A stretch of 26,841 bases of DNA from Minisyncoccia bacterium (GCA_049449075.1 JBMTTF010000001.1:1-26841), one strand, 5' to 3'. Shown: positions 25,400 through 26,769, counted from the first letter of the stretch. Numbers and translations are program-made. Notes: generated from the letters alone by a model not told the origin.

Positions 25400-25819
25400 T
25401 TATTCTTCATGCTCTGCAGCATCAGCCTCGGCTTTGGTCAAATGCACAGTTCCAAAAGGATGTTCTGGTTCTGCATAAATAGAGTATAATTGCAAAGGCT
25501 CATCCCCGGTATTGACTATATTATGAAATATCTCAGCTGGGACATGTATAGAATACCCATCTTCAATATCTTTTACAAAATCCAAATTATCCCGATTTTG
25601 CCCCATATAAACCTTTCCTTGTCCTTGATCTACTCTAATGAACTGTTCAATATTATGATGTGCTTCAAGGCCAATTTCTCCGCCCACAGGTATAGACATA
25701 ACTGTCACCTGCATCTTGTCTCCAGTCCAAATTGTCTGGCGGTAGGCTTGATTCTCGATTACTAATTCTTCTAGATTAAATACTGCTGGTTGTTTACCCT
25801 TGTCTTCAATCATTTTCAT
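25400..25819 (-). CDS. Cupin domain protein
   Basis: ENQAYRQTIWTG, QVTVMSI, IGLEAHH..EQF..V..GQG, VPAEIFHNIVNTG, LYSIYA.PEHPFGTVH. Confidence 0.92.
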   Translation of the reverse strand: MKMIEDKGKQPAVFNLEELVIENQAYRQTIWTGDKMQVTVMSIPVGGEIGLEAHHNIEQFIRVDQGQGKVYMGQNRDNLDFVKDIEDGYSIHVPAEIFHNIVNTGDEPLQLYSIYAEPEHPFGTVHLTKAEADAAEHEE

Positions 25820-25934
25820 AATAGTAATGATTAATATTACATTTATATTATATACCTTGTAGGAGGGTGTTGTCTATATATTGGCAATGTTGATGAGTGA
25901 CACCTGTCCACTATCTACTAAATTATACCTCTCC

Positions 25935-25971
25935 AAATAAAAGAGAGGAGCTTTACTCCTCTCTTTTATTT
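25935..25971 (-). terminator. Intrinsic terminator (distal copy)
   Basis: Perfect 16-bp stem AAATAAAAGAGAGGAG / CTCCTCTCTTTTATTT with 5-nt loop. Confidence 0.85.
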
Positions 25972-26132
25972 AGGGCGGGGACAACCAAAACGTAAGCGTT
26001 TTCCAAAACCACTCGGTTTTGGTGTTTCCGCCACGGGAAACTACCGTTTCCCGACCCCTTCCCCCGGCCGTCAACCAACCAAAAATAAAGAGAGGTGTAT
26101 ATGTACTCCTCTCTTTTATTTAGGGCGGGGAC
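25954..26132. repeat. 29-bp direct repeat (tRNA-Asp 3' end plus terminator arm) at 150-bp spacing, enclosing a GC-rich palindromic module
   Basis: TACTCCTCTCTTTTATTTAGGGCGGGGAC at 25954-25982 and 26104-26132; three 4-nt-loop hairpins in between. Confidence 0.9.
26081..26121 (-). terminator. Intrinsic terminator directly after tRNA-Asp
   Basis: Imperfect homolog of the 25935-25971 hairpin, followed by a U tract on the minus strand. Confidence 0.8.
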
Positions 26133-26199
26133 GGCCGGGCTCGAACCGGTGACCTTCTGCGTGACAGGCAGACGCTCTAACCAACTGAGCTACGCCCCC
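26126..26199 (-). tRNA. tRNA-Asp (GTC), CCA not encoded
   Basis: GGGGGCG/CGTCCCC acceptor, G73, TCTGC-CT GTC AC-GCAGA; T-stem has an A49-C65 mismatch. Confidence 0.95.
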
Positions 26200-26210
26200 A
26201 TAATTGTTGT

Positions 26211-26239
26211 ATTATACCAGTAATCTGATGCTTATGCAA
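26211..26239 (-). promoter_or_regulatory. sigma70 promoter of tRNA-Asp
   Basis: TTGCAT-17 bp-TATAAT with TGn extension. Confidence 0.75.
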
Positions 26240-26250
26240 GAGCAACACTC

Positions 26251-26325
26251 TGGGGTGGCCAACGGGAATTGAACCCGTAATGTCGGAACCACAACCCGAA
26301 GTTTTACCATTAAACTATGGCCACC
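26251..26325 (-). tRNA. tRNA-His (GTG), G-1 and CCA encoded
   Basis: G-1 then GTGGCCA/TGGCCAC, C73, TCGGG-TT GTG GT-TCCGA, GGTTCAATTCC. Confidence 0.96.
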
Positions 26326-26365
26326 ACACAATGTTTCTCTTAAAAATGAAAGTTCAATAATGCTT

Positions 26366-26394
26366 ATTTTACCAAAAACCTCCCCAAATTGCAA
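26366..26394 (-). promoter_or_regulatory. sigma70 promoter of tRNA-His
   Basis: TTGCAA-17 bp-TAAAAT with TGn extension. Confidence 0.7.
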
Positions 26395-26473
26395 ATGTAT
26401 AGTAAAACAACTATAAAGAAGGAATTTATTATATTTATATAACTTCATTGTCGCAAATAGGCTTTACTACTGT

Positions 26474-26506
26474 AAAAAATTCCCCCAAGCAAAACTGCGA
26501 GGGGGA
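26474..26506 (-). terminator. Intrinsic terminator after GC-rich small gene
   Basis: TCCCCC...GGGGGA stem followed by TTTTTT on the minus strand. Confidence 0.7.
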
Positions 26507-26515
26507 TAGGGAGTA

Positions 26516-26743
26516 TTAGCCGCGTGACCGCTCCAAAGAGCGGGACGCCTGATAAGTGCAGGCACATGCCAGCACCATGCTGGCGAGGATGGAGGCCTGA
26601 GCCCCTCTCCTGTGTGGCCCATGAGGGTCCACACAGAAGCCTATGATGAGGATGAATGCAATCCACCCAATGCCAGCAATACTGGCCCAGAAGCTAACCC
26701 AACCATGGGCTACTCTATTTTTTTCGATTTCTTGAATGTTCAT
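26516..26743 (-). CDS. Small GC-rich hypothetical 2-TM protein (75 aa)
   Basis: ATG 26743; two hydrophobic segments separated by DPHGPHRRG; bracketed by promoter and terminator; about 55-59% GC by hand count. Confidence 0.6.
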   Translation of the reverse strand: MNIQEIEKNRVAHGWVSFWASIAGIGWIAFILIIGFCVDPHGPHRRGAQASILASMVLACACTYQASRSLERSRG

Positions 26744-26769
26744 GGGAATTGATAAGGTACAACTCAATG

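Follow-up and report, generated by a model that had tools for sequence, protein, structure and literature searches.

Knowledge of the RtT repeats of E. coli dates back to the late 1970s. They are 178-bp repeats in the tyrT-tyrV operon (Rfam RF00391), located directly behind a tRNA gene and on its strand, and each unit carries an antisense copy of the tRNA T-stem and acceptor (GGGGAAGGAT), GC-rich hairpins, and the last 19 nt of the tRNA once more in sense orientation, beginning in the T-loop. They have been described as a processed small RNA whose mode of action is unknown (preprint). Small palindromic repeats of the REP/BIME/REPIN, Rickettsia palindromic and Correia/MITE types are short, GC-rich, hairpin-forming, multi-copy sequences that encode no protein, often lie at the 3' ends of transcription units, and in some cases nest inside other repeats. 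Integrative elements that target tRNA genes, and CIMEs, are flanked by direct repeats of the target 3' end, the classic attL/attR signature; they supply a replacement end that leaves the gene intact, the displaced end stays downstream, and successive insertions stack. Finally, the primer-binding site of LTR retroelements is complementary to approximately 18 nt of the 3' end of a host tRNA, and copying of the mature tRNA 3' end in retroelements stops around tRNA positions 57-60.

The locus analyzed here resembles each of these systems in part. It lies behind tRNA-Asp(GTC) in a stretch of 26,841 nt (the window) from a Minisyncoccia bacterium with a 733 kb genome assembled in 89 contigs and 93% complete. 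It belongs to a family of small GC-rich hairpin cassettes of Patescibacteria that is apparently undescribed so far; no description of the family was found in the literature searched (open papers only). Our best explanation, held with moderate confidence, is a non-autonomous 3'-end cassette that spreads horizontally, bringing a replacement gene end with it and displacing the resident end.

Layout of the tRNA-Asp locus

Along the host gene the parts of a cassette follow one order: X1 (the gene end), a terminator-like hairpin, X' (antisense to the gene end), a core, X2 (a sense copy of the gene end) and a second terminator. Orientation relative to the host gene is strictly sense in the copies inspected. 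In the window the features are:

26251..26324, minus strand: tRNA-His(GTG), leading the His-Asp tRNA pair (ARAGORN; Rfam tRNA, 63.9 bits)
26123..26200, minus strand: tRNA-Asp(GTC), the host gene (ARAGORN; Rfam tRNA, 64.9 bits)
26104..26132, minus strand: 29-nt direct repeat, proximal copy (100% identity); X1 (last 10 nt of tRNA-Asp) and the first arm of the proximal terminator
26079..26124, minus strand: proximal terminator-like hairpin, seen in the fold; 21-nt arms, 81% complementary, second arm imperfect
26063..26075, minus strand: X', antisense to the tRNA-Asp T-stem 3' strand and the start of the acceptor 3' strand; GACGGCCGGG on the minus strand
26031..26062, minus strand: conserved core; GGAA, GGGGTC, the 7-bp hairpin GGGAAAC/GTTTCCC with a 4-nt loop, and GTGG
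26034-26041/26046-26053, minus strand: hairpin 1, within the core (inverted-repeat search)
26003..26022 (arms 26003-26010/26015-26022), minus strand: hairpin 2, CCAAAACC / GGTTTTGG, loop GAGT on the minus strand; covaries among copies
25987..26002, minus strand: hairpin 3, AAAACG/CGTTTT (read directly and in the fold); variable, other hairpins taking its place in other copies
25954..25986, minus strand: X2 with the distal copy of the 29-nt repeat (25954-25982; 100% identity), from orthologue comparison
25983-25986, minus strand: GGTT before X2, remnant of the 5' side of the T-loop
25928..25978, minus strand: distal intrinsic-terminator-like hairpin; 23-nt arms (87%), followed by a T-rich tail

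A first-pass annotation of the window, made from sequence alone, had described most of this anatomy, and our computations bear it out. The 29-bp direct repeat at 150-bp spacing is perfect (25954-25982 and 26104-26132) and combines the last 10 nt of tRNA-Asp with 19 nt of terminator arm. The three hairpins with 4-nt loops were recovered by inverted-repeat search, direct reading and folding, and the 10-bp inverted copy of part of the tRNA is 100% complementary (26063-26072 versus 26130-26139, about tRNA-Asp positions 59-68). The insert is indeed GC-rich, at 54.8% in 25983-26075 (58% by the earlier hand count) versus 32.6% genome-wide and approximately 33% in the window. It was also correct that the module ends like the tRNA and has a terminator of its own: the distal hairpin contains an 8-bp G/C-containing stem (GAGAGGAG/CTCCTCTC), lengthened by A/T pairs, and is better formed than the proximal one. 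A 9-bp direct repeat, CAACCAAAA (25982-25990 and 26076-26084), had been taken to bound the element. The repeat is present, but we reject it as a boundary because it is missing from the orthologous copies of six other species, and it is probably incidental.

The duplication itself is real, since 25958-26135 is matched with zero differences by a 178-nt contig from a DNA run in another study. An assembly artefact or chance repeat could be suspected in a fragmented assembly of 89 contigs, where a contig break coincides with one sister copy. Given the independent contig, the orthologous copies in six other species, and a perfect 29-mer repeat in 27 kb that is not expected by chance, we regard this explanation as hardly credible.

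The two copies of the 29-mer also carry a trace of their recent history. The tRNA-Asp gene ends in GCCC in the source genome and in GCCA at the other ten orthologous loci of the genus, so that the tRNA with the encoded CCC must rely on 3' trimming and the CCA-adding enzyme. The derived CCC of the tRNA gene (26123-26125) recurs in the downstream copy (25973-25975). Since both copies share this derived triplet and the same terminator arm, the sequences indicate that they were recently homogenized by gene conversion or re-duplication.

The stem of hairpin 1 is invariant and its loop varies, being mostly GNRA-like, whereas hairpin 2 shows compensatory changes: four of its base pairs have 2-12 double-sided changes each among 26 aligned copies. 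Hairpin 3 is replaceable, and some copies contain an extra insert of approximately 90 nt. On its own the module folds no more stably than its shuffles (z = -0.9 for folding energy); structural support comes from covariation and not from folding energy.

These properties are also what would be expected under the main rival to the cassette reading, namely a host-serving RNA of the RtT type. According to this rival the module is co-transcribed by read-through, forms a closed multi-hairpin domain, and is kept for its usefulness and not through movement; it would act in cis, as a 3'-end stabilizer, an insulator or back-up terminator, or a processing platform, or else as a released small RNA. We consider it a possibility to be taken seriously, albeit not a probable one. 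In its favor are the strict sense orientation and the position behind transcription units, together with the invariant hairpin 1 and the compensated hairpin 2. Moreover, a scan of the interval between the tRNA-Asp terminator and the module found no promoter-like site, which fits transcription by read-through. RNA contigs do not inform on this point: in three metatranscriptomes the only RNA contig at the locus spans 26109-26283 (His-Asp and a 14-nt trailer), other contigs cover the downstream cupin gene, and none covers the module, but contigs cannot show absence. Promoter-like sites do flank the region on the minus strand. One (TTGCAA-17-TAAAAT with TG) lies upstream of tRNA-His at 26366-26395, and another, matching 11 of 12 positions, lies at 25847-25876 upstream of a cupin-like gene (25400-25819); the cassette is placed between the terminator of the tRNA operon and the latter site.

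The resemblance to RtT is one of architecture. RtT units and the cassettes lie directly behind tRNA genes on the same strand and have the order X'-core-X2 in common; both occur as tandem units, encode no mobility protein, and are poorly understood in function and origin. This likeness strengthens the host-serving rival, insofar as the E. coli units that share the layout are annotated as a processed small RNA. At the level of homology the two part. The RF00391 model gave no match in window positions 25850-26350 at E values up to 10, none in the sister modules L002 and L003 (E up to 1) or L179 and L180 (E up to 0.1), and scored the four E. coli units used as a positive control at 133-137 bits; the window thus falls below the threshold for RtT membership, set at 45 bits or more with the Rfam covariance model. 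The Patescibacteria family is RtT-like in layout and is not homologous to RtT. Unlike RtT, the cassettes have a terminator hairpin between host and X', use at least 31 tRNA isoacceptors as well as ribosomal-protein genes, and are dispersed (1-26 matches per genome in the genus of the window), with signs of horizontal spread. As a separate observation, the E. coli units and some Patescibacteria copies (Asn, Ser-UGA) contain the antisense T-loop GGATGAGAA, for which the exact complement would be GGATTCGAA; the bases opposite tRNA positions 57-58 are altered alike in E. coli RtT (K-12 1286200-1287700) and in those copies.

Distribution and host matching of the family

The first-pass annotation had suggested a miniature tRNA-targeting element, for which homologous modules should exist elsewhere. 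They do: we find a dispersed, protein-less family at tRNA 3' ends with host-matched sense and antisense fragments. The source genome itself, in which the exact-motif search matched the core at 26031-26058 of the window's contig, has a second copy behind tRNA-Ser(GCT) with a core 86% identical and the same layout; the tRNA 3' end and terminator are duplicated, and a T-arm-complementary segment lies on the 5' side. A shortened copy follows tRNA-Leu(CAA) at 214-297 of contig C51, where the terminator and a perfect antisense of the tRNA end are followed by only about the first 10 nt of the core. The start of contig C41 and the end of contig C87 overlap by approximately 55 nt inside tRNA-Ser(GCT). 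Since the assembly broke at a cassette, tRNA counts for this genome are likely to be underestimates. In practical terms, the cassettes cause metagenomic assemblies to break at tRNA genes, and they may be misread as integration scars or as pseudo-tRNAs.

Within the taxonomic family of the source organism the core is present in 14 of 17 genomes, and within the genus in all 11 species, with 1-26 matches per genome. Nearly every copy fetched from the taxonomic family lies 40-95 nt behind a tRNA on the same strand, the hosts being Asp, Gln, Asn, three Ser, two Leu, Ala and Arg. For the wider search, one genome per prokaryotic species was queried with the exact 24 bases of the core motif (GGGGTC, the 7-bp hairpin with any 4-nt loop, and GTGG). 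At least 118 stretches matched, and among those listed almost all belong to Patescibacteria, of many classes. Fifty-four of 80 fetched copies are behind tRNAs of 29 isoacceptors; the remaining 26 have no upstream tRNA, and many of these lie directly behind protein genes in the same layout. Across the 68 distinct tRNA-linked copies, 31 tRNA isoacceptors serve as hosts. Many Patescibacteria lineages share the 24 specified bases without a single difference, but in an even sample of the phylum only 13 of 401 genomes have the motif. The cassette family is thus widespread and at the same time very patchy. Fetched loci include tandem arrays of cassettes, and some copies are nested inside other repeats. 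Asn-type cassettes at three loci (L016, L025:1350-1500 and L181) are preceded by a degenerate tRNA-Asn-like 3' part that contains AAAGGTTCGAACATC and is ARAGORN-negative; these parts look like decayed or displaced tRNA pieces.

Such a distribution weighs against a host-serving RNA, for which presence in so few of the sampled genomes, copy numbers of 1-26 within one genus, tandem stacking, and nesting inside other repeats are difficult to reconcile. It also bears on a more conventional explanation, in which the locus is an ordinary att-site scar, the remnant of a large integrase-bearing element that had inserted in tRNA-Asp and was later deleted. The 29-nt repeat includes the tRNA end, as such a scar would require. 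However, the same core of approximately 100 nt lies between repeats at well over 100 independent sites, protein genes among them; no integrase adjoins any inspected copy in the source genome; and the exact core motif has no match in IMG/VR viral contigs. This explanation is already disfavoured, and we assign it very little probability.

Matching of the ends to the host is a general property of the family. When the 26 nt left of the core were compared with the last 32 nt of the tRNA, the tail of the copy's own tRNA was a better pairing partner for X' than at least 95% of the tails of foreign isoacceptors in 55 of 68 distinct copies; the median pairing energies were -24.2 kcal/mol with own tails and -16.0 kcal/mol with those of other isoacceptors. 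The duplicated host end is variable in length (10-45 nt). Its tRNA portion in the module is 10 nt at the Asp locus and 9-21 nt in other family members. For 34 of 47 copies, the first base of the exact X2 repeat falls within tRNA positions 57-60, which belong to the 3' half of the T-loop. The family therefore follows a rule, by which a sense and an antisense copy of the upstream gene end surround a conserved core, at tRNAs and ribosomal-protein genes alike.

This rule would also be compatible with an RNA-guided or RNA-primed element, in which X' is a programmable guide or primer site and the core, as scaffold or ribozyme, steers copying or insertion to the 3' ends of the genes of abundant transcripts. 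The host-matched X' directly 5' of a scaffold-like conserved core, the many target genes served by the same core, and the clustering of the X2 boundary where retroelement copying of tRNA ends would stop all point in this direction. The complement of a tRNA 3' end and a copy boundary near tRNA position 58 recall the primer-binding site of LTR retroelements. The likeness ends there: unlike those elements, the cassettes have no LTRs and no coding capacity, show the same layout with mRNA ends, and reside in a genome in which no reverse transcriptase was found. Further, no TnpB or IS110-type gene was found in the 93%-complete genome, Rfam models matched nothing but the tRNAs themselves in the window, in the module region or in the sister modules, and hence no ribozyme or guide-RNA family, and protein-gene hosts offer no modified-base stop that could set the boundary. 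We therefore judge an RNA-guided or RNA-primed element unlikely. If it were true, it would represent a mobile element that is RNA-guided and has no protein gene, with E. coli RtT as a distant analogue.

Protein-gene hosts and the origin of the two gene ends

By Pfam, the protein hosts are L7/L12 (rplL, 4 copies), S9 (rpsI, 3), L33 (rpmG) and L11 (rplK). The layout is that found at tRNAs, with the stop codon included in the duplicated end, and direct repeats of the target gene 3' end flank the inserted DNA at both kinds of host. The element is consequently not tRNA-targeting in the sense first proposed, the same core and the same X1/X'/X2 logic being used behind rplL, rpsI, rpmG and rplK.

The same hosts count against two related suggestions of the first-pass annotation, a dedicated tRNA mimic and an anti-tRNA regulator of tRNA processing. 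A case for them can be made at the Asp locus, where X' can pair with 10 nt of the T-stem and acceptor of tRNA-Asp and is predicted to compete with tRNA folding in the read-through transcript, and where the module end resembles the tRNA end. Yet one and the same cassette serves ribosomal-protein mRNAs with the same logic, X2 at the Asp locus comprises only 10 nt of tRNA, and neither ARAGORN nor the Rfam tRNA/tmRNA models detected a tRNA-like fold in the module, only genuine tRNAs being found. A mimic or regulator specific to tRNA processing is accordingly quite improbable.

Protein hosts further provide a record of where the two gene ends came from. X1 and X2 differ at 44 nucleotides in these copies, 36 of them at third codon positions, and the codon changes are synonymous in 35 cases and non-synonymous in 6. 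X' pairs far better with X1 than with X2 in 7 of 9 protein-host copies (e.g. -38.4 versus -19.6 kcal/mol). At two loci, three to four versions of the L7/L12 C-terminus, different from one another but synonymous, are stacked at the rplL end. Drift in place is a poor account of these differences, because a drifting non-coding copy would lose its frame and X' could not remain matched to a drifting X1; with X' near-perfect to X1, and X2 differing at many synonymous sites, we disfavor in-situ drift as their origin. X1 and X2 have independent coding histories. The simplest reading of these sequences is that X1, terminator, X' and core would have arrived as one coherent block from the orthologue of another genome, and that X2 would be the displaced resident end. 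The almost purely synonymous divergence is evidence for tiny cassettes that carry gene ends between genomes, and an X2 with a foreign coding history has no role in a host-serving RNA. We also considered a mini-ORF running from the SD-like AAGGAG through X2, and rejected it, since an in-frame ATG is found in one rplL copy only.

Under the 3'-end cassette reading, the unit would be a non-coding insertion of approximately 100-150 bp, or the descendant of one, placed sense-wise at the 3' ends of conserved and highly expressed genes. It would consist of a copy of the last 10-45 nt of the host (X1, from then on the functional end of the gene), followed by a terminator hairpin, by X', which pairs with X1 to close a long hairpin, and by the structured core. 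The resident end (X2) and its own terminator would remain just downstream, and this would account for the duplication seen in the first-pass annotation. As with integrative elements at tRNA genes, the gene would stay intact because the cassette brings a replacement end. Cassettes would spread horizontally between genomes and would occasionally be retargeted to new genes.

Turnover and possible routes of movement

At the orthologous tRNA-Asp sites of eleven genus members, a full module is present in 7, a shortened core in 1 and X' only in 3; six species other than that of the window have the same arrangement behind tRNA-Asp. One genome (G011) equals another (G010) plus a single block of terminator, X', core and X between tRNA-Asp and the old terminator, with the downstream flank common to both. 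A related strain from an independent metagenome has no module behind tRNA-Asp; one terminator, unlike those of the window, comes next, and then the same flank (94% identical). Thus filled, shortened and empty alleles all exist, with the proviso that a deletion between the direct repeats would look alike. This proviso applies to the related strain, where the "empty" allele, at 94% flank identity, could be such a deletion. Copies are lost or shortened in close relatives with no visible compensation, which again argues against a host-serving RNA.

Mean identity across seven orthologous copies is 84% in the core, 47-51% in the spacer and terminators, and 96% in the tRNA. The core, then, is either constrained or repeatedly homogenized. 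Preservation of the core at orthologous sites where the flanks are scrambled supports the host-serving RNA, and for the cassette reading it is a difficulty, since a core so conserved and always in sense orientation could equally mean a selected RNA function. Other observations also weigh against the cassette reading. No movement, circular form or enzyme has been observed. The two terminators at the Asp locus are of the same type, whereas a simple model predicts one cassette-borne and one native, so that later conversion must be assumed. The reading would have to account for a fresh X' and X2 at each new host gene, and X alone is too short, and at protein hosts too diverged, for RecA-type recombination.

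As first annotated, there is no integrase near the module, and the adjoining ORFs include none with a known mobility domain. The first-pass annotation had also recommended a search for co-occurring HUH/TnpA genes; these are absent, as are TnpB-type, reverse transcriptase, IS110-type and serine recombinase/resolvase genes (PF01797, PF07282 and PF01548 not found), in a genome that is 93% complete. One tyrosine recombinase (PF00589), Xer-like and of Xer size, is encoded away from the module, and one GIY-YIG protein is UvrC-like and of UvrC size. As candidate mobility enzymes within the genome itself, we therefore reject what the searches returned, which were negative or gave housekeeping-like matches only.

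With no dedicated enzyme encoded in the genome, movement of a 3'-end cassette would most likely depend on DNA uptake and host recombination, on template switching at hairpins, or on a factor that recognizes the conserved core. Three candidate routes may be envisaged. First, transformation could be followed by recombination assisted by homology, with the conserved host gene as its anchor; natural competence and the integration of DNA by homologous recombination have been shown for Saccharibacteria (PMC10633639). Secondly, fold-back or template switching at the terminator hairpin could make X' from X1. Thirdly, a factor could bind the invariant hairpin. If cassettes move with no enzyme of their own, they would represent a minimal parasite that exploits recombination and competence, or else a new RNA-directed element, in the most gene-poor bacteria known.

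In flanking direct repeats of the target 3' end, a replacement end that leaves the gene intact, a displaced end downstream, and stacking of successive insertions, the cassettes are like tRNA-targeting integrative elements and CIMEs. Unlike these, they measure only approximately 150 bp, have no integrase inside or near them, have repeats of 10-45 nt, and carry an antisense copy of the target; moreover, one core serves dozens of targets, which a fixed attP cannot do. With the REP/BIME/REPIN, Rickettsia palindromic and Correia/MITE-type repeats they share small size, high GC content, hairpins, multiple copies, the lack of a protein, frequent location at the 3' ends of transcription units, and occasional nesting. 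The differences are that their termini are host-matched instead of being family-wide inverted repeats, that their duplications are long and variable instead of short and fixed target-site duplications, that no RAYT/HUH or IS transposase was found, and that their orientation to the host gene is strict. Our results also place the RtT-type architecture in a new setting. It is now represented by a large, diverse and evolving family, and the question of its origin becomes tractable by comparison.

The source genome contains further sequences of related interest. Inside an 83-aa ORF on the minus strand of the window (26516-26767) is a GC-rich patch of approximately 210 nt (26470-26678; at least 56% GC versus 33% in the genome) that contains several short hairpins; the patch is single in the genome and has no Rfam match. 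A different and unrelated module type with the same logic is located behind tRNA-Ser(UGA) at 4690-4895 of contig C16. It contains the motifs GAGAAAGTCGGAGC and GGAAAATTACTTGTGACCGA, its final 19 nt copy the tRNA 3' end, and it has no Rfam match; in relatives this type occurs behind tRNA-Gln and tRNA-Ser(CGA), at times with a cassette of the family described above after it. Contig C56 carries a composite GC-rich block at 1750-2260. We considered this block as a fragment of RNase P RNA or tmRNA on account of GAAAGTC-like motifs, and rejected the idea, as RNase P RNA and a tmRNA candidate were found elsewhere. Additional families of GC-rich hairpin repeats, in C56 and at loci L192-L194, have units with, for example, GTCTCCCTTTGGAGGGAG and GTCCTCCCTTGGGGGAGG. 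A core sub-type with GGGAAAAC/GTTTTCCC is nested within C56-like hairpin repeats, and in the genus member with 26 core matches the matches are mostly of this nested kind.
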